Positions 1 to 55,461 of a DNA stretch of 62,618 bases are shown one piece after another (position 1 is the first letter of the stretch; every line of letters starts with the position of its first letter). The translations under genes and the position numbers were made by a program. Source of the DNA: Candidatus Iainarchaeum sp. (lineage in GTDB: Archaea > Iainarchaeota > Iainarchaeia > Iainarchaeales > VGJJ01); the NCBI GenBank assembly GCA_016198125.1, contig JACQJG010000013.1:1-62618 (forward strand). Direction: 5' to 3'. A model generated the notes under the pieces. The model was not told the DNA's origin and did not search any database. It was given only the letters and a program-made list of their open reading frames with translations.

Positions 1-2075
<2,075 letters not shown>

Positions 2076-2429
2076 AAAATCAAGTGCGTTATTGAACCTC
2101 TTTTGTTCTCAGAAAATCACTTGTTTCTTTCGGGCACTTTTCCTATGAACGACGTCATTGATTAAGCAAAGTACAGTAAAGCAAAACGCATTCGCGAAGA
2201 ATTTGAAGTTCCCCGCTTCATTTGCACATTGCCTTTGCACGTTGAATAACCGTTAGTCCTTCACACGCAAAAAAGCTTGCGTGCTGCGTTCAAAAACAGA
2301 AAGGCAAAAGCCCTCCTGAAATGAATGTAAAATTTTTTGGCAATCAATTGCCACGCGCACAATCGTTAGGCCCGTGGGGGTTCTGAAAGAATCCCCCACT
2401 GAACGCGGACCATCCCTACGCAATGGGAT

Positions 2430-2451
2430 ATGGACTCAGCGGGATTCGCAC
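2430..2451 (-). repeat. Partial duplicate of the tRNA-Ala 3' end (16/16 identical, 20/22 overall) in the spacer between tRNA-Ala and 23S
   Basis: tggactcagcgggatt at 2430-2445 is identical to 2539-2554. The next 6 nt are cgcacc versus tgaacc. No matching 5' half or cloverleaf is present. Confidence 0.8.
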
Positions 2452-2538
2452 CAGCCTTTTTACAAAAGCCTGGGGAAAACCCGCCGGGGTATTGCAACGC
2501 AATACCCCCAGTTCGCACCACACAGACGAAACTGTGTA

Positions 2539-2684
2539 TGGACTCAGCGGGATTTGAACCCGCGGCCCCTCCGACGCTTGAAGCTTTTTTTTCGGGTTTT
2601 CTTTTTCCCGAGGCTTTTTCCTTTTTTTAAAAGAAAAAGGCTCTTTTGCAAACGGAGTGCTCTACCAGGCTGAGCTATGAGCCC
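2539..2684 (-). tRNA. tRNA-Ala(TGC) with a ~72-nt intron in the anticodon loop (intron ~2575-2646)
   Basis: Reverse complement reads GGGCTCA TA GCTC AGCCTGGTA GAGC A CTCCG TTTGCA [intron] (T)CGGAG GGGCC GCGGG TTCAAAT CCCGC TGAGTCC A. It has the G3:U70 Ala identity pair and sits in the 16S-23S spacer, as is typical for archaea. Confidence 0.85.
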
Positions 2685-2760
2685 TTTGCGCTGGTAGAAT
2701 GTTGTGCGCGTGTTGGGTTTTAAGGTTATCATGGGTTTGCAGGAGCAAAAGACTTTTGGA

Positions 2761-2781
2761 AGAATTCTTTTGCTCTTTTTT
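2761..2781 (-). other. 16S processing-stem arm (3' flank of 16S)
   Basis: agaattcttttgctctttttt is the reverse complement (20/21) of 4345-4365. A second complementary block is tttgcagga ~2736-2744 versus tcctgcaaa ~4383-4391. This helix-interruption-helix layout is typical of archaeal pre-rRNA processing stems. Confidence 0.6.
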
Positions 2782-2808
2782 GCGGCGTTTTGAATGATTA
2801 TTTTTTGT

Positions 2809-4304
<1,496 letters not shown>

Positions 4305-4344
4305 CAACTGTTCTTAAAGGATTGGACTTTTTTTGCACGCACAC

Positions 4345-4365
4345 AAAAAAAAGCAAAAGAATTCT
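4345..4365 (-). other. 16S processing-stem arm (5' leader of 16S)
   Basis: aaaaaaaagcaaaagaattct is complementary to 2761-2781 (20/21). Confidence 0.6.
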
Positions 4366-4592
4366 CTTGCAATGCCTTTGTGTTCCTGCAAAATGCCCAT
4401 AACCTTAAAACCGATTGCCTCACGCCCAAAAAAGCTTGGGCGCTCATGTCCTTGAATGGAAAGCCAAAAACGGCAGTCCATGCACGTGTCAAGAAAAGGT
4501 TTTTTACCATCCCCTGCTCAAAAGGAGCAGGTTCATCTAATCAGAAAAACCCTTGCATCCATTCCATTGAACCCGGCTCACGGGGCGGAACA

Positions 4593-4601
4593 GGATATAA
4601 A
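4593..4601 (-). promoter_or_regulatory. Candidate TATA box of the rRNA operon
   Basis: The minus strand reads GCTTATAGTTTATATCC, ~290 nt upstream of the 16S 5' end. A second AT-box, GGTTTTTAAACC, lies at ~4619-4630. No transcript data are available. Confidence 0.35.
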
Positions 4602-4698
4602 CTATAAGCCCCTTAACGGGTTTAAAAACCTTGCGATATGCGGGCCGCAAAAGGGCTGCGGAGGCCAATAAATACCCTTTGGCCTGTTAGTGTTTGTC

Positions 4699-5349
4699 AT
4701 GCGCAGGGCCGTTATCTTTGACATGGATGGCGTGCTCGTGGACAGCTGCCCCCTGATTTGGGACTCGTTCATTGTTGCCGCGCGCGAACAGGAATTGAAT
4801 GTTTCAGGCGAATCCATGAAAGACTACCTGGGAATTTCCATTCAGGACTGCCTGACAAGGTGGAAAAAAGCGTATGGCGTTCAACTTAAATTTAAACGGT
4901 TTCGCGCCACGGCATGCGAATACCAAAATACTCATCTCGGGGACAAAGACCTTGCAGTGCCTGGTGTAAAGGAATTTTTAAACACGTTGAAGGCAAATGG
5001 GATTCGCATGGCGGTTGGAACTTCTTCCCACGAGGAACGCGCCCGCTTTTACCTTGAACCCACCAAACTTGCACACTACTTTGACGCCATTGTCACTTCA
5101 ACCAGGGTTCCCAACCACAAACCCTTTCCGGATATTTTCCTGCGCGCGGCAACTGAATTGGGCGTTGCTCCCGGCAAGTGCATTGTAATTGAGGACGCGC
5201 CCATTGGAATTGAAGCCGCGCACCGCGCGGGCATGAAAGCCATTGGCATTACAACGCCTCCAAGCACAAAAGAATTACTGCAAAGCGCAGACATTGTAAT
5301 TGGCGGTTTCTCAGAACTAAGCGTTGAACGCGTGTTGTCCTTTATTTGA
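4699..5349 (+). CDS. HAD-superfamily hydrolase, beta-phosphoglucomutase-like
   Basis: Motif I is VIFDMDGVLVDS, followed by GTSS and a distal EDAPIGIEAA motif. The ATG at 4699 lies ~25 nt after AATAAATA, which suggests a leaderless transcript. The ORF track begins at GTG 4690. Confidence 0.8.
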   Translation: MRRAVIFDMDGVLVDSCPLIWDSFIVAAREQELNVSGESMKDYLGISIQDCLTRWKKAYGVQLKFKRFRATACEYQNTHLGDKDLAVPGVKEFLNTLKANGIRMAVGTSSHEERARFYLEPTKLAHYFDAIVTSTRVPNHKPFPDIFLRAATELGVAPGKCIVIEDAPIGIEAAHRAGMKAIGITTPPSTKELLQSADIVIGGFSELSVERVLSFI

Positions 5350-5371: not shown

Positions 5372-5869
5372 TCACCAATCAATAGTGAAAGGAGAACGCG
5401 CCGTATTCTCTTCATCTTGACGTTCTGCGCTTTCTCTCCGAGCTTTATCTTTATCCCCTTTTCTTCTAGTCCATGCCCCTTTTCGGCGTGATAAAAAATA
5501 TACATACCCTCCAGCAGTTTTAAGGACTTTGGGTTTTTGCCCTTTAAGTGAAACAAATTCTTTCTTTGTCATTTTTATTATGGCATCTCCATAAAATGGG
5601 TCATAACCTGCAATTGTCTCATATGATCTTTTGGCTTCTTTTAGTCTTCGATCAAGCTTTCCCACTCTTCTTTCCGCAGGTCCACGTCTTCGATTCAAAG
5701 CGAGTATCGTTGGATTTTTACCTGCTTTAAGGAAGACTGCTGTTGGTTGTTGACCTTTCAAACGTAAAAAGGAATTAAATGGAAAAGAAACTGCTTTTCT
5801 ACCTTGGTATTGAATAGGCCGTCCTATTTGTTTCTTTCTTCTTGATGGCTTCATGTCGTTATTAATCAT
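5372..5869 (-). CDS. Hypothetical highly basic protein with an internal repeat
   Basis: 165-aa ORF in an AT-rich patch. It has two copies of F[LV]xLKGQxP...LK(A/T)(A)G, and K/R-rich termini. I recognise no family. Confidence 0.5.
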   Translation of the reverse strand: MINNDMKPSRRKKQIGRPIQYQGRKAVSFPFNSFLRLKGQQPTAVFLKAGKNPTILALNRRRGPAERRVGKLDRRLKEAKRSYETIAGYDPFYGDAIIKMTKKEFVSLKGQKPKVLKTAGGYVYFLSRRKGAWTRRKGDKDKARRESAERQDEENTARSPFTIDW

Positions 5870-5927
5870 CTTATCCTATTTAAATATTCCTGCCAAAAAG
5901 TGTGCATCATGAATTTGAAAAGTACGT

Positions 5928-6446
5928 TTACTTTACTATCGCCCGTTCAGTTAGTGGAAACTCTTGCAGTTTTTTGAATGTTGCTTGTTTAAGTTTTCCG
6001 TCCAATACAATGGTTAAAACAGGATTGTGGAAGAGATCAGGGTCATCCACGATTGCTTGACGAACGTTCATGCCATCGTGAAAAAGAATGGTGCTAACTC
6101 CCGCCAACACCCCTCTTAAAGATGCATCGGCATGGATTTCAATAACATCCAATCCCAATTCTTTTCCAGCTTTTCCAAGAAATGCACGGGATTCTAATCG
6201 TGAGAATATCAGAAGAAGTGTTTCATTACTAGAAATTTGATGCACTGTTTCGAGTACTACCCGTCGATCCACCCCCAACGCTTTTCCTATTTTTGCAGGT
6301 GCTTGTTCAATATTCCCAATTCGAATTTTTTTATCACGACTCACGGAAATTCCCAGCTTTAAAAACTCACGTGCGACCTTTTCACGTGCAGGCGATCGAA
6401 CAAATTCAGACCATATTTTCGAGTAAACACTTTTGCGCATAAGCAT
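5928..6446 (-). CDS. ACT-domain regulator-like protein (COG2150-type, predicted regulator of amino-acid metabolism)
   Basis: 172 aa, with an N-terminal HTH-like segment (IAKALGVDRRVV) and a C-terminal ACT-like part (VIEIHADASLRGVLAGVSTIL). The start overlaps the upstream stop by 1 nt (TAATG). Confidence 0.5.
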   Translation of the reverse strand: MLMRKSVYSKIWSEFVRSPAREKVAREFLKLGISVSRDKKIRIGNIEQAPAKIGKALGVDRRVVLETVHQISSNETLLLIFSRLESRAFLGKAGKELGLDVIEIHADASLRGVLAGVSTILFHDGMNVRQAIVDDPDLFHNPVLTIVLDGKLKQATFKKLQEFPLTERAIVK

Positions 6447-10216: not shown

Positions 10217-11131
10217 ATGCCCTACATGGAACGCGATGACTTTTGGATACACGTAATAAAACTTCTTCGTCCCGCAGAATGGACTAAAACATTGCTGAAC
10301 ATGGTCATTGGAAGCATTGGTGCGCTGTACGTGTTGTATGGCATGGAATGGAGCCAGCACGTGGACCTTGGCCTGTTTGCATACGCGTTCATTGCCATTG
10401 GGCCTTTGCTGTGGGGCGGGCTTTACGCGTTGAATGATTGGACGGACTGGAAAAAAGACAAATTGCATCCCGTGAAAAAGAACCGCGCCATTCCAAGCGG
10501 AAAAGTGCACCCCAATTTTGCCGTGATCCTTGTAAAAGTCGTGCTCATTCTTGCATTCTTAATTGGACTGCACGTTTCCCTGCTTTTCTTTGTGTGCATG
10601 ATTGCCATGCTGTTGAACCAGCTAATGTACACGCTCAAACCCTTTCGCTTGAAAGAACGCGCGTTTTTAGATTTGGTTTCAGGTTCCATGATTAATCCTT
10701 TTTTCCGGTTTTACGCGGGCTGGGTGCTGTTCCTGCCTGCATTCAACGCCCCGCTTTGGCTGATTTTAATGGTGGTTGGAGGCCAATTTGGAGGCTATGT
10801 CATTTACCGCCTGGCAGGCAAGCACCATGAAAAAGGATTGAATTACAACAGTTCCGTAGTAGTATTGGGCTCGCATGCTATTCGCGTGCTTGCGTACGCG
10901 GCCATGGTGCTTGCACTTCTGGCGTTTGCATATGGAGTACTATTCGCTCCCCAACAGGAACGGTGGCCACTGCAATTACTCTGGCTTGTACCCCTAAACC
11001 TGGTATTCCTTCCAGGGTATTGGAGTGCGTTGCGCAACCCCCAAAAGATGGACTTGCCCAACGTGTACCGTTTATTGTACTGGAATGTGCTTGTGCTCGC
11101 GCTCGCATTCATTGCCTTGTTCCTGCTGTGA
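10217..11131 (+). CDS. UbiA-family prenyltransferase (divergent paralog)
   Basis: Polytopic membrane protein with the first Asp-rich motif LNDWTDWKKD. Confidence 0.7.
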   Translation: MPYMERDDFWIHVIKLLRPAEWTKTLLNMVIGSIGALYVLYGMEWSQHVDLGLFAYAFIAIGPLLWGGLYALNDWTDWKKDKLHPVKKNRAIPSGKVHPNFAVILVKVVLILAFLIGLHVSLLFFVCMIAMLLNQLMYTLKPFRLKERAFLDLVSGSMINPFFRFYAGWVLFLPAFNAPLWLILMVVGGQFGGYVIYRLAGKHHEKGLNYNSSVVVLGSHAIRVLAYAAMVLALLAFAYGVLFAPQQERWPLQLLWLVPLNLVFLPGYWSALRNPQKMDLPNVYRLLYWNVLVLALAFIALFLL

Positions 11132-13413: not shown

Positions 13414-14268
13414 CTACGGCGCTAATACTTCACGCAACACGCGGTTCACAAAGTCCATGGGCCCGTCACCAGAGATAAGAGCATCATAACGCTCCTTATA
13501 CAACAAAAGGTTAACATTATTTCTTTCATTCAAGAAACCAATTTTCAGGACTGTTTTATGCGGCAGGCCTTCTACCATATCAATGTCTTCCAAGGAATCC
13601 CCTAACAGCAAGACATTGGGCCGGTTCAAAACCTCCTTTTCATAAGGGGTTCCCTTCACGTGGCCTTCATTCTTGCTAAGCGTGTGAATAATATGAGAAG
13701 CATTCTTGTATCCTAGCACGCGGCCTTGCGCATCCAATTCATAAAAATTGGCTAACACGTGAACGTTGGAAGTCAAGCATTTTTTTAAGGTCAGAAAGCG
13801 CGTAATCATGTCCCCAGAAGCCGCAGAAAAAACAAGCACGGGAATGTTATGCGTCTCTAGAATCTTAAAAAAGTCAATAACCCCTTCACGCAGAGGGATC
13901 AACTCTTTTTCAAGAATGTCCTCCCAAATGCCCATGTTCATTCCATACTTGTGCAAAACCTGAATATGCACACTCCACCATTCATTCATTTTTTTCGAGC
14001 GCTCAGCCAGTGAAAGACTCTGATTCTCTTCAAACGGATGATAGTAGTCAAACAACCGCTTGTATTCTCTGGCATATTCTGGCCCCAAGTAATTCCCTTC
14101 CATGACTAATTGAATGGCTCCTGGAAGTTTCTTGGCATTCACAAACGCTTTGGTGAGCGTGCTGTCAAAGTCTGCCACTACGTGCAATGCACGAGCCCCC
14201 CCTGCAACCAATGCGCGCTTTTTTTCTTCGAATGCACGCGGAGTGTACGGAACCCAGTTATTTGACAT
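13414..14268 (-). CDS. Pyrimidine 5'-nucleotidase, eukaryote-type (UMPH-1 / NT5C3 family HAD)
   Basis: Motif I is VVADFDSTLTK. IPVLVFSAASGDMI matches PVFIFSAGIGD of NT5C3, and LLLGDSLEDIDMVEG matches ILLGDSQGDLRMADG. Confidence 0.75.
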   Translation of the reverse strand: MSNNWVPYTPRAFEEKKRALVAGGARALHVVADFDSTLTKAFVNAKKLPGAIQLVMEGNYLGPEYAREYKRLFDYYHPFEENQSLSLAERSKKMNEWWSVHIQVLHKYGMNMGIWEDILEKELIPLREGVIDFFKILETHNIPVLVFSAASGDMITRFLTLKKCLTSNVHVLANFYELDAQGRVLGYKNASHIIHTLSKNEGHVKGTPYEKEVLNRPNVLLLGDSLEDIDMVEGLPHKTVLKIGFLNERNNVNLLLYKERYDALISGDGPMDFVNRVLREVLAP

Positions 14269-14494
14269 AAAATACCCCCACCCCTTTTGGGATATAAACA
14301 GACCTGATTAAAAACAACGCCGGGGTTCACAGCCCATGAAAAGGTGTATGGCCGTTATTGATGGGCCAACAGGTCAGGAAAAACAACGTGAGAACATGAG
14401 CTGTAAAGTTAAGCGTCACTTAAATCTTTTCAAAAACCAAAAGTTGGGCTAAAACCAAAACGTTAATAAATGTCCAAAACTAAAATAACACATT

Positions 14495-15064
14495 ATGACA
14501 AAGAGAAATAAAAAGGAGTTTTCATCCGAACCACATATAGAACTGCTCATCGCATTGAAAGCCCGTTTTGAGAAAAACATGAACCGCCATAAAGGCCTTG
14601 AATGGGCTAAAGTACAAGCAAAGGTGGAGGCTAATACTGAAAAACGGTGGTCGCTCAATGAAATGGAACGAACGGGCGGCGAACCCGACGTGGTTGGCCA
14701 CGATAAAAAGACGGGTGAATACATTTTTTATGATTGTTCAGCGGAAAGTCCTAAAGGCCGCAGAAGTCTTTGTTACGACCGTAAAGCACTGGAAGAAAGG
14801 AAAGAATTCAAACCCAAAGACAGCGCTGTTGATATGGCAGCCGCCATGGGCATTGAGCTTTTAACGGAAGAACAATATCGAGAGTTGCAGAAGCTGGGAG
14901 CGTTCGATACGAAAACGTCGAGCTGGGTGAAAACCCCTTCCAATATTAGAAAACGCGGCGGCGCCCTCTTTTGTGACCGCCGCTACGACACCGTCTTTGT
15001 GTACCACAACGGCGCAGAATCCTACTATGCCGCTAGGGCATTCCGCGGCGCGCTAAGGGTTTAA
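14495..15064 (+). CDS. DUF4256-like protein
   Basis: RFEKNMNRHKGLEWAKVQAKVEAN...WSLNEMERTGGEPDVV matches my recollection of the mostly bacterial DUF4256 family. The surrounding DNA is AT-rich. Confidence 0.5.
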   Translation: MTKRNKKEFSSEPHIELLIALKARFEKNMNRHKGLEWAKVQAKVEANTEKRWSLNEMERTGGEPDVVGHDKKTGEYIFYDCSAESPKGRRSLCYDRKALEERKEFKPKDSAVDMAAAMGIELLTEEQYRELQKLGAFDTKTSSWVKTPSNIRKRGGALFCDRRYDTVFVYHNGAESYYAARAFRGALRV

Positions 15065-15262
15065 TTTTGGAAGATGAATGAAACAAAAAAAGCGATAAAA
15101 TAAATTTACAACCCGGATTAATAATTCTGGACACACTCGTTCTGATTTTGCAGTCAAGATATGTTGGAAGGATATTTTTCCCCTCCATTCAAGTGCATTA
15201 GGAACCATCCGGTCATTTTTGGATAATGGTTAATATTTTTAATGAATCCCGTGCATTGTTCA

Positions 15263-16078
15263 TTATTTTGTGAGTTGAATGAGTGCCTGGGGGTTATTAA
15301 TGTCTCGCTTGTTTGGAAAGCCAAAATAGCGTGTTTTCACACGATATCCCATTCTTTCACATAATTTTGTCCACTCCTCGGTTGTTCGGTACGAGTAAGG
15401 CATTGGAATTTTAGCGCGGCCTGAAAGAACCTTATTGGCAACCCAATCGAGCATGGACATTACTTTCTGTCTCTCCCTTGGTTTTAGTCTCATAAATTTT
15501 GCCCATGTTCTGGCACCCTTTAAAGGCCTCTTTTTTGTCGAATAGGAGTCTTCGAGAATAATTACCTTTCCTTCATTGGGAAGGGCATCATATATTCCTT
15601 GCAAGTAACTCTTTTGATTGATCTTGGGCATATGGTGCAAACTCCAAGTTAGTGTAACTACATCAGGATGAAAGCTTTTCAGAATATTCTCAAGGGAATT
15701 TGGATTTATTTGTATGAATTCTGTTTTTGCATTTGAAAACAACTTCCATTCGGGGTACTGAGTTACATCGACTCCAATGATTTTTTTGAATCGATTATAT
15801 TTGGATAAGCGATAAGGTAATGCGCCTGTTCCACACCCAACATCTATTATCAGTTTAGCTGACGGAATATGGGGAATAAACTCGTTTTCAAGGAAACTTG
15901 GAGCGACCTTCTGTCGAAAACCAATCACATATTTTTTAGTAATTTCATTGAAGTGTTTATTTCTGAATTTTTTAATTTGGTCTTTTTCTAATGCTTTTAT
16001 TAGGTCTTTCCTAAAAACTTTTGAGAAACCAATCGAATGAAGACTTGCATTTACATCTTCAAAAATATATTTTCTCAA
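15263..16078 (-). CDS. Class I SAM-dependent methyltransferase
   Basis: Motif I is IIDVGCGTGALPYRL, followed by GVDV and VILEDSY. The gene is AT-rich. Confidence 0.75.
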   Translation of the reverse strand: MRKYIFEDVNASLHSIGFSKVFRKDLIKALEKDQIKKFRNKHFNEITKKYVIGFRQKVAPSFLENEFIPHIPSAKLIIDVGCGTGALPYRLSKYNRFKKIIGVDVTQYPEWKLFSNAKTEFIQINPNSLENILKSFHPDVVTLTWSLHHMPKINQKSYLQGIYDALPNEGKVIILEDSYSTKKRPLKGARTWAKFMRLKPRERQKVMSMLDWVANKVLSGRAKIPMPYSYRTTEEWTKLCERMGYRVKTRYFGFPNKRDINNPQALIQLTK

Positions 16079-16217
16079 CTATTCATTTGCCAAAATGGAG
16101 CGAATTTTAATGTCAAAGTTCAAGGAATGGTCAAAACGTTTTGTTGCCATTGATGAGGCCACCCAATCATTGTTTTTGTTACATTAGTGAAAACCTTTTC
16201 GACTTTTTGATTAAACC

Positions 16218-16233
16218 AGTGCCCCGAGCGGGA
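16218..16233 (-). repeat. Direct repeat of the tRNA-Glu 3' end (att-like, distal copy)
   Basis: agtgccccgagcggga is identical to 18455-18470, which covers the last 14 nt of tRNA-Glu plus 2 flanking nt. Confidence 0.85.
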
Positions 16234-16278
16234 AGTCGCACCGCCAGTCCGCATAACATCCCATGTTAGGGAGCCAAT

Positions 16279-16689
16279 CTATCTCTCTTTGCTGATTATT
16301 TCTTTGGTTGTCAATACTTTTACTGCGGATTGTTCCTGAAGGGCTTTATCATTGGACCATAGTGGGCAGTTCAAATGAAGAGCTAACGCAATATACGCGA
16401 TGTCCTTTTCATCAGGGGTAACTTCTATTGCTCTTTTCTTCTGACTTTTGAAATCCTCGAATGGAATAAGCGTAATGCCTGCCGCTTGAACAAGTTCATC
16501 AACCAATTCGTTCAACTCCTCCTCGCTCAACTTGGTTTTCTTCGTCAATTCGGGAATCTTTTCCTGAAATTCTTTCAGGGTGTATTCGGGTGCATAAAAA
16601 TCGTGTCCTGAAAAGAGTAGAATGGAACGAGTGGTGCCGTCCCTTATGAGCGCGGCAAACAAGATGTTAGCGTCAACAACTAGAATCAT
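16279..16689 (-). CDS. vapC: PIN-domain ribonuclease toxin (VapC-like)
   Basis: MILVVDANILFAA provides the first acidic residue. Later acidic positions are in TPDEKDIAYIALA and SNDK. It lies 6 nt downstream of the antitoxin gene. Confidence 0.8.
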   Translation of the reverse strand: MILVVDANILFAALIRDGTTRSILLFSGHDFYAPEYTLKEFQEKIPELTKKTKLSEEELNELVDELVQAAGITLIPFEDFKSQKKRAIEVTPDEKDIAYIALALHLNCPLWSNDKALQEQSAVKVLTTKEIISKER

Positions 16690-16695
16690 GGGGAA

Positions 16696-16920
16696 TCATC
16701 TTTCCATGAATCGTTTGGACACATTACTCTTTATCTTCCCACCTAAGGAAATGGCATCGGCTTCCGTCAATTCACTTTTGGAAAGCAACTTATCCATCTT
16801 TTCCATCAGACGAATCCGCTCCAAAATAGCCTTCCGCGCCACCGCGCTCCAATTCATCTCTGGAAACTGATGCATTTTGGCTTTCATCTCATCCGAAACC
16901 GAAATCGTAACCGTAGACAT
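16696..16920 (-). CDS. vapB: VapB-type antitoxin (archaeal RHH-like)
   Basis: MSTVTISVSDEMKAKMHQFPEMNWSAVARKAILERI... is a typical archaeal PIN-partner antitoxin. An SD GGAGGT lies 8 nt upstream. Confidence 0.7.
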   Translation of the reverse strand: MSTVTISVSDEMKAKMHQFPEMNWSAVARKAILERIRLMEKMDKLLSKSELTEADAISLGGKIKSNVSKRFMER

Positions 16921-16950
16921 AAAAGAACCTCCAATAGTAACTGTGTTAGC

Positions 16951-16967
16951 ACAGTATTTAATACTGT
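16951..16967. promoter_or_regulatory. 8+1+8 palindrome overlapping an AT-box; putative VapB operator or bidirectional promoter
   Basis: acagtatt-t-aatactgt lies 31-47 nt upstream of the vapB ATG and ~70 nt upstream of the small plus-strand ORF. Confidence 0.45.
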
Positions 16968-17037
16968 CTCCAAAAACGGATTAAAGGATAGGAAACAATA
17001 CGCAAAATCAGGTATTGAAAAAGCGTTTGGAGAGGCA

Positions 17038-17175
17038 ATGCCGGGATACCCAGCAGCCATCCTCACGGTTGGTATCATTATCCTTTCAGCAGTCGCGTTG
17101 ATTTATGGTGTCCTAAAAGATCCTCTTTTCTCTGGAATATGTTTGATTGCCGGATTCATAGTGGGGCTACTTTGA
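17038..17175 (+). CDS. Possible 45-aa two-TM hydrophobic peptide
   Basis: MPGYPAAILTVGIIILSAVALIYGVLKDPLFSGICLIAGFIVGLL is preceded by GGAGAGG 3 nt before the ATG. It is convergent with the TIR gene and overlaps its end by 9 nt. It is too short for strong support. Confidence 0.3.
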   Translation: MPGYPAAILTVGIIILSAVALIYGVLKDPLFSGICLIAGFIVGLL

Positions 17176-18408
17176 TTCGTTTAGCTGGACCAAAAATCCA
17201 GAAATGAGCGATTGCATATCCAAGACAACCCATTTCGTGATAATATTCTTGGATATATTTTGATTATAAGTTCGAATTTTATGAAGCAATGCGATATAAT
17301 CCTTCATTAGATTCTTTTTCCTCAGAAAGGATTCCAAAATTTCACCCTTCCTTTCTAACAAGTCATGAGCAATTGGTCGAATTTCATCAAGGTTATTATG
17401 ACTGAAGGAAATCGCGTTGGCTTGCGCTTCATGGCTAAGGCCTTCCAGTAACTGCTTGAAATCGACAAGATTTTCGTTTTCATCAGCCTCTTGGACGGGT
17501 GAAAAAAGAGGCGAAGGTAGGGCGACTTCGGTGAATTCAAATTGCATTCCTAGAGCTCGATTTATTTTTTCAGAAACAATCTTGTGAAAATTTGACTCAT
17601 TGATATCCGTAGCTTGTAATTCGAACAACATCCCGCTCGGCCTCTTTCCTTCAAAACAAAAATGAGTTATTTCTGGAATCCCTGCCTTTCGAAGTTGTCC
17701 ATGAGCGAATCCAACTTCTTGATTTCCATATGTAGAACGATGAAAATCACCCGTTACAATAACGAAAACATGAGTGCTCTCTTCAAGTTTCTCAGTTATC
17801 TGAGGATTCCATGGTTTATCATCAACAATGTCCTCGTGGGCGACAAATCCAACAATATTCACTTGTGCCAAATACTCTTTGAGGACTTTGGCAATATGTT
17901 TGTCATTGTGGTGATGACTGATAAATACAAATGGTAGGCGGGCAGTCGCAGTCCCAGTGAACTGGTCAAAAATGTCCGATTTCGTTTGAGTTAGTGCCTC
18001 GAGAGACATTATCCTTTCACTTTCTTGAATATCTATTGTTAGTTTTTGACTTGGGGATTTGGCCCGTAATTCAACCAGGTCATCATGGTAAACCTTCAAG
18101 GCACTTTTCACGACTTCTTTATGTTCGCTGACAGTATCGGAGTCCAAAATAGTTGTTTTATCGCTCCAATCTTTGGCGTCTTCCATTGCTTTCTCAATTT
18201 TTGATCGAACTTCTTTCCAATGGGCGGCGATATGAGCCCTTGTTTCGGGGGAGGCATTGGTCAAACGTGAACGAGTAATCTCGGCAAATTTGATTCTGGC
18301 AAATTTCAACGCTTCGAGAATTGTCGAAACGCTTTCTTCGTGAAACCCAACATAGTTTATGTTTGGCATAATATCGCCCGCTTCCATCCGTTTTTTAACC
18401 GCCGTCAT
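17167..18408 (-). CDS. TIR-domain protein with helical N- and C-terminal domains
   Basis: Residues ~158-275 read FVFISHHHNDKHIAKVLKEYLAQVNIVGFVAHEDIVDDKPWNPQITEKLEESTHVFVIVTGDFHRSTYGNQEVGFAHG. This matches the TIR_2 pattern (FISHxxxD ... W...I...l..s...vvl.S.....S.w...E...A), with the conserved Glu at E231. The start could instead be Met8 or Met14. Confidence 0.7.
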   Translation of the reverse strand: MTAVKKRMEAGDIMPNINYVGFHEESVSTILEALKFARIKFAEITRSRLTNASPETRAHIAAHWKEVRSKIEKAMEDAKDWSDKTTILDSDTVSEHKEVVKSALKVYHDDLVELRAKSPSQKLTIDIQESERIMSLEALTQTKSDIFDQFTGTATARLPFVFISHHHNDKHIAKVLKEYLAQVNIVGFVAHEDIVDDKPWNPQITEKLEESTHVFVIVTGDFHRSTYGNQEVGFAHGQLRKAGIPEITHFCFEGKRPSGMLFELQATDINESNFHKIVSEKINRALGMQFEFTEVALPSPLFSPVQEADENENLVDFKQLLEGLSHEAQANAISFSHNNLDEIRPIAHDLLERKGEILESFLRKKNLMKDYIALLHKIRTYNQNISKNIITKWVVLDMQSLISGFLVQLNESK

Positions 18409-18456
18409 CCATATCCAGTCCGGATTCCCGGACGTTATTCGGACTGGAAGGTAAAG

Positions 18457-18531
18457 TGCCCCGAGCGGGATTTGAACCCGCGTTACCGGCTTGAAAGGCC
18501 GGTGTCCTTGGCCGGGCTGGACGATCGGGGC
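18457..18531 (-). tRNA. tRNA-Glu(TTC)
   Basis: Reverse complement reads GCCCCGA TC GTCC AGCCCGGCCAA GGAC A CCGGC CTTTCAA GCCGG TAAC GCGGG TTCAAAT CCCGC TCGGGGC A. CCA is not encoded. Confidence 0.9.
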
Positions 18532-18938
18532 AAGCCCTTGCGTGAGCTTGCGACGCGTTCAGTTGGGGATTCCTGTTGGAACCCCAACGAAACTGCCATA
18601 TCTGTTTGCATGAAGGTTGCGACAGGGGTCTTGCAAACCCCTTGGCAAGCCTTTGCGAGCTGCCATGGAATGGGCCTTGGAATGCTTTTTAAACGTATAC
18701 TCTACCCCAAATAGTGCATGGCACGTTTTCCTGAAGCAGAAAACAGGCTTTTCGCCAACATTTGGGTGTGCATGGCATGCAATGCCCGCCACCGCATGGG
18801 AGTTGGAAAAAAGCCCAAGCGGTGCAGAAAATGCAAGAGCACGCGCATGCGCTTAAAGAACAAGGTCAAAACCGGGGCATAAAAAACACTTTAAAAACTT
18901 CAATCCTTTTAAACCCCCTTCTTTCCAATTCATATCCT

Positions 18939-19757
18939 ATGCATGCATTTCTTGAAATCACGCGGCCCTTCAACTGTCTCATGGCGGGCATTGCAACATT
19001 CATTGGAAGCAGCGTGGCACTGGGAAGCATGGCATTCAACAGCCAAACATTTTACGCAATCATAGCCGTTATGCTCGTGTGCGCAGGCGGTCAAACAATC
19101 AACGATTACTTTGACCGCCGCGTGGACAAAAAACTCAGCCCAAAAAAGCCCATTCCAAGCGGGCGCATCTCTCCTTTTGCGGCATTGGGATATGCACTGG
19201 TATTATTTGTACTCGGCATTTGGGTGGCCTCTCTTATACACTTCACGGCATGGCTGATTGCCCTTGGGTTTTCCGTGCTGCTTTTTGCGTATTCGGCTTT
19301 CATGACCCGCGTAAAATACCTGGGCAACATTGTAGTAGCATTGGGGACTGCGTTTACGTTCATCTTTGGTGCAAGCGTAGTTGGAAACTATTACCTGGTA
19401 GGTATTTTTGCAGGAATGGCATTCCTTGCAAACTGGGCGCGCGAAATTGCCAAGGACTTGGCAGACATGAAAGAAGACAAAGGATATAAGAGAACGTTGC
19501 CTTTGATGGCAGGAGAGCGGTTTGGAGTGAATGCTGTGTATGTTCTCACGATGGCCACCATGGCATTGGCCTATTATCCCTTTCTTGCAGGGTTGACCCA
19601 TTGGATTTATGTTGTGCTTGCAACCCTGGCCAACTGGGGGTTTTACTGGTCCCTGGTACAACTGCGCAAAAAACATTACGCGATTTCGCATAATGCATCC
19701 AAGAAATCCATGGCATTTGCATTAATCGCGTTTCTTTCAACACTAATCGGAAGGTAA
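18939..19757 (+). CDS. UbiA-family prenyltransferase, DGGGP-synthase-like
   Basis: MHAFLEITRPFNCLMAG..., NDYFDRRVDK and KDLADMKED Asp-rich motifs. AT-boxes at 18886-18913 fit a leaderless start at 18939. The 59-codon upstream extension in the track looks non-coding. Confidence 0.75.
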   Translation: MHAFLEITRPFNCLMAGIATFIGSSVALGSMAFNSQTFYAIIAVMLVCAGGQTINDYFDRRVDKKLSPKKPIPSGRISPFAALGYALVLFVLGIWVASLIHFTAWLIALGFSVLLFAYSAFMTRVKYLGNIVVALGTAFTFIFGASVVGNYYLVGIFAGMAFLANWAREIAKDLADMKEDKGYKRTLPLMAGERFGVNAVYVLTMATMALAYYPFLAGLTHWIYVVLATLANWGFYWSLVQLRKKHYAISHNASKKSMAFALIAFLSTLIGR

Positions 19758-30860: not shown

Positions 30861-32027
30861 TCAAGGCTTTCCGGTAGGATAAACCACGTCATCCAATTTA
30901 ATGGACGCATCGCTTGTTTCTTCGCGCAAGGCATTCAAAAACAAGTCATTCTTTTCTTTTATGGAAAGCCCTTCCAAGGTCAGGGACCCTTGAGTTTCCA
31001 GCATGCGGTTTAACACGTTTGGAATCACGCTTTCCTTGTACTTTTCTGCCATCTTACTAATTGCAAAACCTGCGTGCGCCGTAGGCTGTTCCACATACAA
31101 AGTATCTATGGTTGGGTCCCAGGTTTCAAGGCCGCCAAAGGGAAGAGCACCAGGCACCACGCGGTCTAAAGCCGTATAGGCCCCATACTCAGCGATCCCA
31201 GCTTCCAACCAGGGTTGAAGTTTTAATCCTTGAATGGCCTGCCGGTTCAGTGCATGCGAGAGAAGCAATTCAAACGCGCCTGTTTTGAAAGTAGATTCAT
31301 CCAATGCATACGCATTGCTGACCACTAAAGCATTCAAGCCCACGTATTCCAATTCTTTACCGGGAATAGGCAAGAACCCCAAGGCCAGCGTGGAATACGG
31401 CTTGAATCCAGTAATTTCCTTTACCCTGGACTTGGCTGTACAAATAGAGTCAAAAGTACTCTCATGGCCTTCATAGTATTTGACTTTTTGGACTTGAGAA
31501 AACCGCAGCCCGCAATTTACATCCGCTCTTTCTTCCGGGCTTAAAACAAATGCCACTTGCGTTGTATGCGCAGTCAATAACGGAGTTTCGTTCAACGCAT
31601 GCTGGCCTTCTTCAACACTCACATTCCACTCCACTCCAGGGATTGCGCCCCAGTCAAAGGCGTCCAAAACACATAGGTCATCGATGCACCGCTTGCCCAA
31701 ACAGGTCCCAGTAGTACAATCCTTTTTGTTTTTAACCACTTCAAATGAAGTGACTGCCCCCACTGGAAAGGGAGTAACTGTTACCTTTTCCAAGGAAACC
31801 AGGACGTTGACTTGTTGAACAGTTTCCGCAGGTTCAACGGGCACAGGGGGCTCAACCCCTTCTATTCCACTCGGAACTTCGGGTAAGGCATTGACGGTGT
31901 TCTGTACGTTGGCAGGCCCTTCAGGTCCCTGAAGGCATCCAACCACCAAGAGTACCACTGCCCCTGCCATTATTTCATACCGCATGCCCCCCCATGGTTT
32001 TTCAAGCATAAAATAGTTTCGCTTCAC
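30861..32027 (-). CDS. Hypothetical secreted or lipoprotein
   Basis: The N-terminal hydrophobic segment ends in VVGC (lipobox-like). No catalytic motif recognised. Confidence 0.55.
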   Translation of the reverse strand: MKRNYFMLEKPWGGMRYEIMAGAVVLLVVGCLQGPEGPANVQNTVNALPEVPSGIEGVEPPVPVEPAETVQQVNVLVSLEKVTVTPFPVGAVTSFEVVKNKKDCTTGTCLGKRCIDDLCVLDAFDWGAIPGVEWNVSVEEGQHALNETPLLTAHTTQVAFVLSPEERADVNCGLRFSQVQKVKYYEGHESTFDSICTAKSRVKEITGFKPYSTLALGFLPIPGKELEYVGLNALVVSNAYALDESTFKTGAFELLLSHALNRQAIQGLKLQPWLEAGIAEYGAYTALDRVVPGALPFGGLETWDPTIDTLYVEQPTAHAGFAISKMAEKYKESVIPNVLNRMLETQGSLTLEGLSIKEKNDLFLNALREETSDASIKLDDVVYPTGKP

Positions 32028-32042
32028 ACGACTAAAAACTTA

Positions 32043-32867
32043 GGTGATTGGGTAGAAAACGGAGCAATTTAACTACTTTTTTGGCTTTTTTACGTCTATG
32101 GTTGTGGGTTCGGCCATGTATGAACATGGTCGTAAGTGCTGGTTTTGCTGCTCGTATGGCTTGTCGCGTTTGCGCGACAAGCGAGTTTGGTGTAGCGCTT
32201 GTCGTTCGAAATATAGTTTGAGAAAATTGAAACGCGATCTAAAAGTCTTATACTATTTCTATTTGGAAGTGAGCGCACGAAAGTGCGCTCGTGAACTCGG
32301 ATTGAATTACAAAACAATTGCAAAAAGATACATGCAATATCGCGAAGCGATATTGCGTTACTCCGAGAATGATTTCAAAAAGTTGCACGGAAAAATAGAA
32401 GCAGATGAATCTTATTTTGGTGGTAAACGAAAAGGTAATCGTGGCAGGGGTGCTTTCAATAAACAAGCCGTATTCGGCATTCTTGAACGTAATGGGCGGG
32501 TTTACACGGCCGTCGTAGAAAATGTTTCAGCAAAAACATTGTTCAATCACATCAAAAAGAAAACGAGAAAGGGGAGCGTATTCTATACCGATTGTTTCAA
32601 ATCCTATAAAGATTTGAAGCAATACGGAAAACACAATCGGGTAAAACACTCAAAAACGTTCGGAAAAGGACACAATCACATCAACGGAATAGAAGGATTC
32701 TGGTCATTCGCAAAAGAACGATTCCACAAATACCACGGAATAAACAAACAGAATTACCCGCTTTACATCAAAGAAATGGAATTCCGATTCAACAACAGAA
32801 AAGAAAATCTGTACGCCAGATTAATTGGCGTAATACGCCAATTTGCTCCGAAAAATACCTAATCACC
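32043..32867 (+). mobile_element. IS1595-family insertion sequence, complete, with an 8-bp target-site duplication
   Basis: Imperfect 25-bp terminal inverted repeats match 19/25: GGTGATTGGGTAGAAAACGGAGCAA at 32043-32067 versus the reverse complement of 32843-32867. Flanking direct repeats AAAACTTA lie at 32035-32042 and 32868-32875. The element is AT-rich compared with its flanks. Confidence 0.85.
32098..32862 (+). CDS. IS1595-family (ISXO2-like) DDE transposase
   Basis: It has an N-terminal Zn-ribbon (CWFC...CSAC). EADESYFGGKRKGNRGRGA..KQAVFGILERNGRVY, FYTDCFKSYKDL and INGIEGFWSFAKERF are the hallmark DDE_Tnp_IS1595 blocks. Confidence 0.88.
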   Translation: MVVGSAMYEHGRKCWFCCSYGLSRLRDKRVWCSACRSKYSLRKLKRDLKVLYYFYLEVSARKCARELGLNYKTIAKRYMQYREAILRYSENDFKKLHGKIEADESYFGGKRKGNRGRGAFNKQAVFGILERNGRVYTAVVENVSAKTLFNHIKKKTRKGSVFYTDCFKSYKDLKQYGKHNRVKHSKTFGKGHNHINGIEGFWSFAKERFHKYHGINKQNYPLYIKEMEFRFNNRKENLYARLIGVIRQFAPKNT

Positions 32868-35168: not shown

Positions 35169-35873
35169 ATGAAAACAGTGGGAATAATTGGGGGTCTTGG
35201 ACCAGAAACAACTTCGGAATTTTACTTAGACTTGGTCTTCTCTTGTCAAAAAAAGGATAGAACCCACAGACCAGCCATAATAATTACAAGTGTGCCTATG
35301 CCTTATTCAATAGAAGAAGATGCAATTTCAAAAAATAGTGGAATTGAAAGGTGCCTGCCTTTTTTGATAGATGAAGCGAGAAGATTAGAAAAATCTGGCG
35401 CTGATTTTATTGTAATGCCTTGTAATTCTCTTCATATTTTCCTCAAAGAAATCAGAAACGCCGTCAAAATTCCTGTTTTAAGCATTGTTGAAGAAACAAT
35501 AAAATTTCTAAAGAAAAATGAATTCAAGAGGGTTGGCATAGTCTCAACTTCTGCAACAATCAGAAACAAATTGTATGAAAACGCGTTTGAAGAAAACAAG
35601 ATTTCTTATGCGACTCCAACTGATTTTGAACAGGAAAAAATGGGAAAAATCATCCTGAACCTTGTTACTGGAATGCAAAACAACAAAGACAGGGAAGAAA
35701 TAATCAGAATAATAGGCGGTTTTGAAAGCAGAAATGTCGATTGTGTCGTACTCGCATGCACGGACCTGCAGTTACTCATCCCAAAGTATCCCCCGCTGAA
35801 GGTATTTGACACTATGACGATTTTTGCAGATGCGACAGTTGATTACATGCTGCAAAACAACAGCAGCACATAG
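35169..35873 (+). CDS. Aspartate/glutamate racemase-family protein
   Basis: MKTVGIIGGLGPETTSEFY, with the two catalytic Cys contexts MPCNSLH and LACTDLQ. The gene is markedly AT-rich. Confidence 0.8.
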   Translation: MKTVGIIGGLGPETTSEFYLDLVFSCQKKDRTHRPAIIITSVPMPYSIEEDAISKNSGIERCLPFLIDEARRLEKSGADFIVMPCNSLHIFLKEIRNAVKIPVLSIVEETIKFLKKNEFKRVGIVSTSATIRNKLYENAFEENKISYATPTDFEQEKMGKIILNLVTGMQNNKDREEIIRIIGGFESRNVDCVVLACTDLQLLIPKYPPLKVFDTMTIFADATVDYMLQNNSST

Positions 35874-37195: not shown

Positions 37196-37270
37196 TACAC
37201 AGTTTCGTCTGTGTGGTGTGACATTCAGCAAGGAATTCCTATTGGAACCTAACAGGCCAGCTGCGGCTGT

Positions 37271-54318: not shown

Positions 54319-55461
54319 ATGGTTTCTTCACGCCGATTACTAGGACGTATTCATCCAAAGGGACGTTTGTCTGCGCAAGAGCGAGCCGCACGATTAGTCG
54401 CACGAAAAATTCGTTTTGGAAGACATATCCAACTCCATCAAGTGGGAACCGTGCCTCAAACCCCCTTTGAAAAAGGAGAATATGTTAAACGACTCAGGGC
54501 GATTGTCCAAAAAAGGCGCACGCTAAAGAAAACCTCTTCTCAGTACGAAAAACTAACAACAAAAGTACGGGTACTCCAGCTCAGCCGCCAAATTGGAATG
54601 TTAAAGGGCGGAAGAAGACCCAACATCCATCAACTTTTTGCTACTATTCTTTTGATGAATGGATTAAGCTCCGCGAAAAACGCTGAAATAGCTCGTGCAT
54701 TGATTAATATTTGGAATAGGGATAAACAGAATATTATTTGGGAAGGAGCCCCCCATAATGTTTATTACATTGCCACTCATTTTGATTCCCAAGGCCGAAC
54801 ATTTTTTGAACTACTGGAACGGGTTTTGCATCACGCCAAAAATCGGGCCGTTGATAGCCGGACTCTCGCTGATAAAATTGGACTAAAATGGACGCGCAAA
54901 AATCAGCAAATGATTAATGTTGCTCTTCAGACGATTGAAACCGCTGGGCTGATACGAAAAATGCCTTTCATGATGAAGAGGACTGGTGGAGGAATTTCGG
55001 TTTGGGTCCATACAACCTATAGAAATCCTGCTATTTTGTATCAAAATCCAGAAATGGAAATTCTTAACGTATTGAATACACGTGGACCTCAACGAGTCAG
55101 CGATTTGCATCATCCCCAGCAGCAAAGAAAATATTGGGTGGGAAATGAATACGCTACGTTTTCAGGTAAAACTGTTTATATGAACTTAATAAAATTGGAA
55201 GCCGACGAAGTGATACAAAGACGAAAAATACCAGGCCGACAAATAAAAGGAAAAATGAGTGTTGAAGTCAGCCTCACACCCGAAGGAAAAAAACTCATGG
55301 AGGAATACCATAAGACAGGGCATTTACCCGAAAAGCTCCGAAAAATTTTACTCGGAGAAAAAGAAACCCCTATTTCTTCCGAGGTCAAGGAAAAATACAA
55401 AGAAATCGTTCAATTAATTGATGCGCTTCTCCGCCAAAAAACCAAAGAACTCCAACCATGA
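54319..55461 (+). CDS. Hypothetical protein with two winged-helix-like segments and a basic N-terminus
   Basis: SRTLADKIGLKWTRKNQQMINVALQTIETAGLIRK and EILNVLNTRGPQRVSDL...VYMNLIKLEADEVIQRRK look like wHTH units. It is more AT-rich than its neighbours. Confidence 0.45.
   Translation: MVSSRRLLGRIHPKGRLSAQERAARLVARKIRFGRHIQLHQVGTVPQTPFEKGEYVKRLRAIVQKRRTLKKTSSQYEKLTTKVRVLQLSRQIGMLKGGRRPNIHQLFATILLMNGLSSAKNAEIARALINIWNRDKQNIIWEGAPHNVYYIATHFDSQGRTFFELLERVLHHAKNRAVDSRTLADKIGLKWTRKNQQMINVALQTIETAGLIRKMPFMMKRTGGGISVWVHTTYRNPAILYQNPEMEILNVLNTRGPQRVSDLHHPQQQRKYWVGNEYATFSGKTVYMNLIKLEADEVIQRRKIPGRQIKGKMSVEVSLTPEGKKLMEEYHKTGHLPEKLRKILLGEKETPISSEVKEKYKEIVQLIDALLRQKTKELQP

Follow-up and report, generated by a model that had tools for sequence, protein, structure and literature searches.

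How a group of AT-rich genes came to lie between a tRNA gene and an exact copy of the 3' end of that same gene, and whether these genes act together, is the question raised by a 2.2-kb cassette in Candidatus Iainarchaeum sp. (assembly GCA_016198125.1). The stretch analysed, hereafter the window, comprises positions 1 to 62,618 of contig JACQJG010000013.1. It is a chromosomal contig of a DPANN archaeon, carrying an rRNA operon (1-4304), signal recognition particle RNA, FtsZ, TFB, aminoacyl-tRNA synthetases and ribosomal proteins. Genomes of DPANN archaea are tiny, and their mobile elements and immunity are little known. We consider it rather probable that the cassette is a small islet without an integrase, which either remained of an integrative element at the 3' end of tRNA-Glu(UUC) or is a non-autonomous derivative of such an element, and that it carries two independent modules, one being a stand-alone TIR-domain protein and the other a VapBC-type toxin-antitoxin pair.

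As the initial annotation had proposed, the arrangement is typical of an element inserted site-specifically at the 3' end of a tRNA: an intact tRNA-Glu is followed by the islet proper (16234-18454, 2,221 bp) and then by a displaced fragment of the tRNA, with the two tRNA ends identical at 16 of 16 positions (Table 1). The repeated 16-mer, AGTGCCCCGAGCGGGA, reads TCCCGCTCGGGGCACT in the tRNA sense. It spans the 3' strands of both the T-stem and the acceptor stem, preceded by the last base of the T-loop and followed by the discriminator A and two further nucleotides. Its two exact copies lie 2,237 bp apart, and no further match occurs in the 62-kb window even when two mismatches are allowed. Looser matching and local alignment likewise brought up no decayed copies of the tRNA end in the window beyond these two. 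The earlier view that the repeat is not random was borne out as well, since 100 dinucleotide-preserving shuffles gave a mean of 0.04 hits and none of them two or more, and about 1.5e-5 occurrences are expected for a same-strand 16-mer in 62.6 kb. The left junction is matched at 99.9-100% identity in the independent assemblies L113 and L114 and is therefore not an assembly artefact. Both assemblies represent the same population as the window and serve as confirmation only, the ends of L114 being sequencing adaptors.

Further support comes from three informative relatives, L112, L115 and L116, which are short Logan contigs. L115 (5.8 kb) starts inside the same tRNA end (27/27 nt) and holds an exact second copy of 14 nt of it (14/14, CCCGCTCGGGGCAT) 1,141 bp downstream, the two copies enclosing a Yip1-like gene and a peptidase fragment; relative to the repeat of the window, the start of this one is shifted inward by 1 nt and its end falls 1 nt short. 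In L115 and in the window, the same segment of the tRNA has been duplicated independently, with different genes in between, and this is the strongest evidence for a recombination site. L112 (1.4 kb), which encodes the only close homologue of the TIR protein (P0002, 71% identity), begins inside the tRNA; the last 27 nt are identical to those of the window while the tRNA body is different. The TIR gene follows directly after the tRNA end, and the intergenic region is approximately 80% identical to the window. In L115 and L116 (4.0 kb) the VapBC pair is shared at 80% nucleotide identity, with the similarity limited to window positions 16272-16995.

The order of genes along L115 deserves a description of its own. 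Positions 1-4700 hold a stack of three small cassettes after tRNA-Glu, the first with the Yip1-like gene and the peptidase fragment, the second with Fic and VapBC, and the third with AbiEii and a partner gene. The Fic/VapBC cassette is followed by an 11/14 copy of the tRNA end, and AbiEii and its partner by a copy of the T-arm portion (18/18) and a Na/Ca exchanger gene. Each of these later tRNA-end copies precedes a hairpin of about 45 nt (GCATTTTTATCACCACC..GGTGGTG), and the copies weaken with distance from the tRNA.

The ends of the cassette carry a second kind of repeat inside the first. An arm of the palindrome next to the tRNA-proximal repeat recurs in inverted orientation next to the distal one, forming the subterminal inverted repeat I3 (16244-16261 versus 18430-18447, 16/18 nt; 10 and 7 nt from the repeats), the arm motif of which has no other occurrence in the window. 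The outermost 7-10 nt of the two cassette ends mismatch each other. The palindrome is situated right upstream of a TATA-like TTAAAAAA and of the TIR gene, and it is kept upstream of the TIR homologue in L112. It is a candidate binding site for a protein, as a recombinase arm site or an operator. A similar GTNATNCGGACT is found 17-19 nt inside the distal repeat of L115; by a rough estimate its chance at that spot is about 0.002, for a pattern that was defined after both sequences had been viewed. If the cassette ends were joined via one repeat, an att-like region would result, in which a tRNA-identical core is flanked by inverted sites that could be arm sites or a transcriptional operator. In L002, which is a distant and very AT-rich metagenome-assembled genome (MAG) of Iainarchaeota-like type, the motif was also matched 76 nt past tRNA-Glu; this match falls within the start of an open reading frame (ORF) for a membrane protein and was treated as coincidental.

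Base composition is atypical. The guanine-cytosine (GC) content of the cassette is 0.418 versus 0.470 for the window (sd 0.023, 2.2-kb windows), and none of 249 non-overlapping windows was as GC-poor or as deviant in tetranucleotide usage, which supports foreign DNA beside tRNA-Glu. Taken together, integration at the tRNA-Glu end is supported indirectly, by the repeat in L115, the position of the TIR gene in L112 and the subterminal inverted repeat.

Table 1. Features of the tRNA-Glu locus and its surroundings (positions in the window).
Feature	Position	Strand	Evidence and remarks
tRNA-Glu(UUC), intact	18456/18457-18531	minus	ARAGORN; Rfam tRNA, 66.1 bits; 3' end toward the cassette
16-bp direct repeat, tRNA-proximal copy	18455-18470		Exact match; last 14 nt of tRNA-Glu plus 2 nt
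16-bp direct repeat, distal displaced copy	16218-16233		Exact match; sole other copy in the window
Palindrome CCAGTCCGAAT-N11-ATCCGGACTGG	18414-18448		7-9 nt inside the proximal repeat; inverted repeat I23
Inverted copy (16/18 nt) of the repeat-proximal palindrome arm	16244-16261		10 nt inside the distal repeat
Stand-alone TIR-domain protein	17167-18408	minus	Pfam TIR_2, E=1.6e-12
45-aa hydrophobic ORF (putative gene)	17038-17175	plus	ORF list; two helices predicted; ATG preceded by GGAGAGG
Overlapping palindromes ACTGTG-N4-CACAGT and ACAGTATT-T-AATACTGT	16940-16967		Around a TATA-like box upstream of vapB
Ribbon-helix-helix (RHH) antitoxin, VapB-type, 74 aa	16696-16920	minus	Identical protein assigned to PF26688 RHH_12 (precomputed Pfam)
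PIN_2 toxin, VapC-type, 136 aa	16279-16689	minus	Pfam PIN_2, E=4e-24
Class I S-adenosylmethionine-dependent methyltransferase	15263-16078	minus	Pfam; lowest GC of the region, 0.365; outside the left repeat

The surroundings of the tRNA are conserved in other genomes on one side only. On the 5' side of the tRNA, the gene order tRNA-Glu, L40e, UbiA, HTH, PCMT is kept in distant Iainarchaeota MAGs, which have none of the genes that the window holds on the 3' side. The best matches of the UbiA gene come from Candidatus Iainarchaeum MAGs at 44% identity, and a UbiA-based search of genomes and Joint Genome Institute metagenomes gave distant relatives only, at no more than 44% identity. The exact tRNA-Glu was absent from the species-representative genomes searched, exact-protein look-ups for L40e and the TIR protein matched no record, viral contigs scanned for the tRNA end and the palindrome gave no match, and neither did plasmids and phages in a blastn search with the whole cassette. 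Synteny of window positions 1-4200 with L005 turned out to be merely the rRNA operon. The window has two UbiA-family prenyltransferase genes at most 9 kb apart (10217-11131 and 18939-19757). In L002 (3846-9437), two genes occupy the 3' flank of tRNA-Glu, one for an HsdR-like subunit of a type I restriction enzyme and the other for an HNH endonuclease. The 3' side of tRNA-Glu may be a defence spot more widely.

The genes for the TIR protein, the RHH antitoxin and the PIN toxin all lie on the strand of the tRNA, and the 45-aa ORF on the opposite one. Translation of the TIR gene probably starts at the ATG at 18369, which would give 400 aa and from about which the family including P0002 aligns. 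An N-terminal helical domain (aa 14-155) is followed by the TIR domain (aa 156-290) and, at the C-terminus, by a further helical domain, about 120-130 aa long. All members of the family alignment have Glu231, which is part of the motif NQEVG and corresponds to the catalytic Glu of known NADases, i.e., that of tir-1/SARM1 (WVHKE) and that of SpbK (CLNE). The AlphaFold model (predicted local distance difference test score 80) has a canonical TIR fold, with a template modelling score of about 0.7 to the TIR domains of AbTir, SARM1 and MyD88; the N- and C-terminal helical domains had no structural match in the fold search. An exhaustive search yielded approximately 25 representatives of about 270 aa with an N-terminal helical domain and a TIR domain, and the C-terminal helical extension occurs otherwise only in P0002 and P0127. 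One family member, in the DPANN archaeon Candidatus Norongarragalina (L128), stands beside an HTH gene amid housekeeping genes. The 71% overall identity with P0002 is distributed unevenly, as it amounts to 43% in the N domain, 92% in the TIR domain, 88% in the C domain and 44% in the last 18 residues. At the nucleotide level, the N part of the gene is roughly 50-60% identical to L112 versus 85-93% for the remainder. This mosaic conservation would fit a fast-evolving or exchanged sensor combined with a conserved effector.

The VapBC pair is compact, with 6 nt between the end of the RHH_12 gene and the start of the PIN gene. The 74-aa antitoxin matches the NCBIfam model VapB_Sulfo at E=4e-6, which is under the model cutoff, and shares 92% amino acid identity with the copy in L115. 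In the PIN_2 protein, the candidate acidic active-site residues, with positions assigned from the sequence, are D6, a Glu in APEYTLKE, D93/D96 and D114. The overlapping palindromes upstream of vapB are kept in L115 and are likely to form an autoregulated VapBC promoter/operator. The PIN_2 protein has 596 homologues, and the RHH_12 partner was present wherever the context was read. The pair occurs with no TIR gene and no tRNA, in unrelated surroundings, in L117-L121, L122-L123, L126, L127 and L129, and in L115 it is next to Fic, again with no TIR gene. The 45-aa ORF has a mean hydropathy of 1.84 and a sub-threshold match to DUF7512; no counterpart exists in the 69 bp beyond the TIR gene of L112, and the homology with L115 ends short of it.

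Several points weigh against the insertion of an integrative element. No integrase, split integrase or casposase is encoded in the cassette, the ORFs of which are those of the TIR, RHH and PIN proteins and the 45-aa ORF, and no integrase or casposase was found in L115 or among the approximately 50 larger ORFs of the window scanned against Pfam; on the missing integrase, the initial annotation was right. Neither an empty site in the relatives found, the nearest of which have 44% UbiA identity, nor a circular or excised form was seen. The related contigs are short (1.4-5.8 kb), the presence of the TIR gene beside the tRNA in two genomes could reflect vertical inheritance instead, and the functions of the islet genes are deduced from sequence only. 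Moreover, the tract just outside the left repeat (15065-16217), which holds the methyltransferase gene, has a GC content of 0.358, below that of the cassette, and native GC resumes only at the DUF4256 gene (0.481). The low-GC tract crosses the distal repeat, and the boundary at 16218 is therefore not marked by composition. The earlier description of an AT-rich cassette thus stood as far as its deviation from the 249 windows is concerned, but the AT-rich island is not confined to the repeats and reaches about 1.15 kb past the left one, to about 15065.

A split SSV-type integrase across the repeats was rejected, the repeat-crossing ORFs being at most 44 aa long or antisense to the tRNA. Two integrase candidates beside other tRNAs, one secreted-protein-like (30861-32027) and one HTH-protein-like (54319-55461), had no Pfam match. 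The only transposase- or recombinase-like gene seen in the window belongs to an IS1595-family (ISXO2-like) transposase (32098-32862, GC 0.40).

If nothing had been inserted at all, the genes would be native and vertically inherited beside tRNA-Glu and the 16-mer would be a chance match or the trace of a decayed tRNA duplicate. The TIR gene beside the tRNA in two genomes, the lack of an observed empty site and the presence of AT-rich genes elsewhere in the window speak for this. We regard it as extremely unlikely, because the chance is about 1.5e-5 (same-strand 16-mer, 62.6 kb) and no shuffle reproduced the pair, a tRNA duplicate in decay would not end up as an isolated, perfect 16-mer, L115 has an independent repeat with the same limits, and the composition is deviant. 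The low GC beyond the left repeat bears on another reading, tandem accretion, which is compatible with insertion. Here the cassette would be the newest, tRNA-proximal unit of an island of about 3.4 kb (15065-18454), in which an older methyltransferase insertion has lost its outer repeat. The methyltransferase region is the lowest in GC and is followed by the native DUF4256 gene, L115 shows a stack with copies decaying away from the tRNA, and the best methyltransferase homologue (69%) lies in a different context, an unrelated metabolic cluster (inositol-1-phosphate synthase/superoxide dismutase/carotenoid) in L124. A methyltransferase-based search for a relative with an unoccupied site led only to that cluster. 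On the other hand, a mismatch scan and local alignment found no decayed tRNA-end copy in 14000-16217, and the methyltransferase homologues look metabolic, not mobile. The methyltransferase may be an older acquisition at the same site, and we hold accretion to be a tentative but genuine possibility.

The length of the repeat and its place in the tRNA are also what would be left by a transposase-type enzyme, e.g., a casposase (Cas1-family) cutting 14-18 bp apart by the T-loop, in which case the repeat would be a target-site duplication and the cassette a non-autonomous transposon with inverted repeats as ends, as opposed to the att product of a tyrosine integrase. Casposons insert by tRNA 3' ends with duplications of 15 +/- 2 bp and the T-loop region as a leader-like recognition element, and mini-elements with terminal inverted repeats alone integrate in vitro (PMC5137440). 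Shared with them are the place of insertion at the T-loop/tRNA 3' end, the approximate length of the direct repeat (about 15 bp), the inverted repeats close to both ends and, possibly, stacking in tandem (PMC5137440). The repeats of 16 bp at tRNA-Glu, 18 bp at a tRNA-Ala of the window (2429-2446) and 14 bp in L115 all begin at the T-loop end, and tRNA-Glu and tRNA-Ala have a 19-nt T arm in common. However, Cas1 and PolB were found neither in the cassette nor in the other scanned ORFs of the window nor in L115, the two cassette ends are unlike each other in their outermost 7-10 nt, and the A. boonei duplication overlaps the tRNA by 5 bp versus 14 bp here, which makes this origin of the repeat unlikely. 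The cargo poses a separate question, as the initial annotation had grouped the TIR gene, VapBC and the membrane ORF into one unit. In favour of one new defence system made of TIR, VapB/PIN and a membrane peptide, the three main genes are co-directional and tightly enclosed by the repeats, and no known TIR partner such as ThsA is nearby. This grouping did not hold up. The RHH_12/PIN_2 pair has what is likely its own promoter/operator and is TIR-free in L115, L117, L122, L126, L127 and L129; the TIR relatives are without VapBC, both in L112, whose 69 bp past the gene are unlike the window, and in L128, which has HTH and housekeeping neighbours; the membrane ORF has no L112 counterpart; and a gap of 246 bp with a divergent ORF separates the TIR gene from vapB. 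A single system is very unlikely in our view, and from gene content and context the cassette appears to be two separate modules, the stand-alone TIR protein and the RHH_12/PIN_2 pair.

The islet derived from an integrative element remains our preferred explanation, and its history could be pictured as follows. The attachment site of the element would have matched the T-stem and acceptor end of tRNA-Glu, recombination would have rebuilt tRNA-Glu, and the old 16 bp would have been displaced to the far end. Any further movement of the islet would need a recombinase supplied from elsewhere. By analogy with SpbK, the N-terminal helical domain of the TIR protein may sense a viral or foreign protein, upon which the TIR domains would cluster and destroy NAD+ in an abortive infection; the architecture, the conserved Glu and the mosaic conservation are consistent with such a course. 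For the VapBC pair, the probable role is either stabilisation of the islet through addiction or that of a stress or defence module in its own right. This suggests that even a tiny DPANN genome could keep a variable, horizontally supplied spot at tRNA-Glu, with a likely NAD-depleting TIR gene and an addiction module. The stand-alone TIR family, with its fast-diverging N domain and a TIR domain conserved at 92%, is a candidate for the first tested TIR defence in DPANN, and mobilisation of small cassettes in trans, if true, would be a new route of gene flow in these archaea.

Other tRNA genes of the window have repeats and hairpins of their own. The 16S-23S spacer encodes a tRNA-Ala with an intron, the 3' end of which is present as an 18-bp direct repeat, AATCCCGCTGAGTCCATA (minus strand, 2429-2446 and 2539-2556); the copies are 108 bp apart, with 2429-2446 downstream of that tRNA. 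It covers the same tRNA part as the tRNA-Glu repeat, and each copy is followed by a 16-nt hairpin, with different stem sequences, and then by TGGTSCG. Either a miniature scar of insertion or the duplication of a processing element could account for the AATCCCGCTGAGTCCATA repeat. On the 3' side of tRNA-Leu (37196-37221) and tRNA-Ala (2513-2538) lies a common 24-nt hairpin-forming trailer, TACACAGTTTCGTCTGTGTGGTG. An 18-nt motif opening a hairpin (..GAACCCC), GCGTTCAGTKGGGGATTC, is present in the rRNA spacer (2389-2406, minus strand) and just 5' of tRNA-Glu (18555-18572, plus strand), with no shuffle giving two hits and a weaker version after tRNA-Leu. Low GC content was also recorded at two further places in the window, an Asp/Glu racemase gene (35169-35873, GC 0.37) directly downstream of tRNA-Ser, the end of which has no repeat that we could find, and two ORFs (165 and 172 aa, GC 0.39-0.41) with no Pfam match that adjoin the rRNA operon (5372-6446).

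We hypothesize, as a doubtful extension of these findings, that tRNA 3' ends in this DPANN lineage serve as stacking platforms for integrase-less cassettes of 0.1-2 kb, which are bounded by 14-18-bp tRNA-end copies together with arm motifs or hairpins and moved in trans by a tyrosine integrase or a casposase-like enzyme. Reduced archaeal genomes would then collect toxin-antitoxin and defence genes in an integron-like or CRISPR-leader-like way. Compared with an integron, the locus has no IntI integrase and a single cassette in the window, and repeated border hairpins are seen only in L115; no R''/R' core motifs were recognised by eye in the L115 hairpins, for which no attC search was run.

Among known defence systems, SpbK of the Bacillus subtilis element ICEBs1 is the closest known parallel in architecture and presumed action. 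Like the TIR protein described here, it consists of one polypeptide in which the TIR domain, with a catalytic Glu, comes after an N-terminal domain, and it is carried on an integrated mobile element (PMC12847820, PMC8880864). SpbK's N-terminal domain binds a phage portal protein, which leads to TIR clustering and NAD+ breakdown (PMC12847820). The differences are the weak sequence similarity, the extra C-terminal helical domain and the archaeal host. PADLOC matches of the TIR protein are weak (PDC-S66, E=1e-5; ThsB, E=1.7e-5; spbK, E=1.7e-3; also TIR-TM), P0002 matches the PADLOC spbK model at E=5e-6, and with the profile of the TIR family, the SpbK chain 9phb is matched at E=4.4e-5, chiefly in the TIR region. 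The matches to Thoeris ThsB and to the PADLOC candidate PDC-S66 are likewise matches of the TIR domain, and shorter family members, e.g., P0135, cover PDC-S66 nearly full length. Unlike in Thoeris, no ThsA-type effector (SIR2 or Macro with SLOG) is nearby, with no ThsA-like gene among the six PADLOC-scanned ORFs at 14495-18408, and the scores are low. The second module resembles type II toxin-antitoxin systems of the VapBC kind in having the RHH gene upstream of the PIN gene, a palindromic operator and the acidic residues, and it would be an ordinary member of a family widespread in DPANN.

As for the manner of integration, sublocations of integration within tRNA genes were reportedly described by Williams in 2002. 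The cis-mobilizable elements (CIMEs) of streptococci keep att-type ends, have lost the recombination module and can be mobilised in trans. The islet is alike in its kept att-type ends, lost recombination module and possible mobilisation in trans, and no helper or integrase was found for it. With the archaeal and bacterial integrative elements at tRNA 3' ends, such as PYG1 of Pyrococcus yayanosii and those of the TKV/SSV type, it shares the intact tRNA, the element and the displaced partial tRNA copy, as well as atypical composition and accessory cargo (PMC9897764). The islet differs from them in being 2.2 kb long with a 16-bp repeat versus 9-23 kb with 44 bp in the archaeal cases cited (PMC9897764), and it lacks genes for replication and virions as well as an integrase, whether intact or split. 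A decayed, tRNA-linked islet with defence and addiction cargo is a familiar pattern; interest here attaches to the DPANN host and the very small size of the islet, to the stack of cassettes in a relative and to an uncharacterised, stand-alone TIR family whose N domain is hypervariable.

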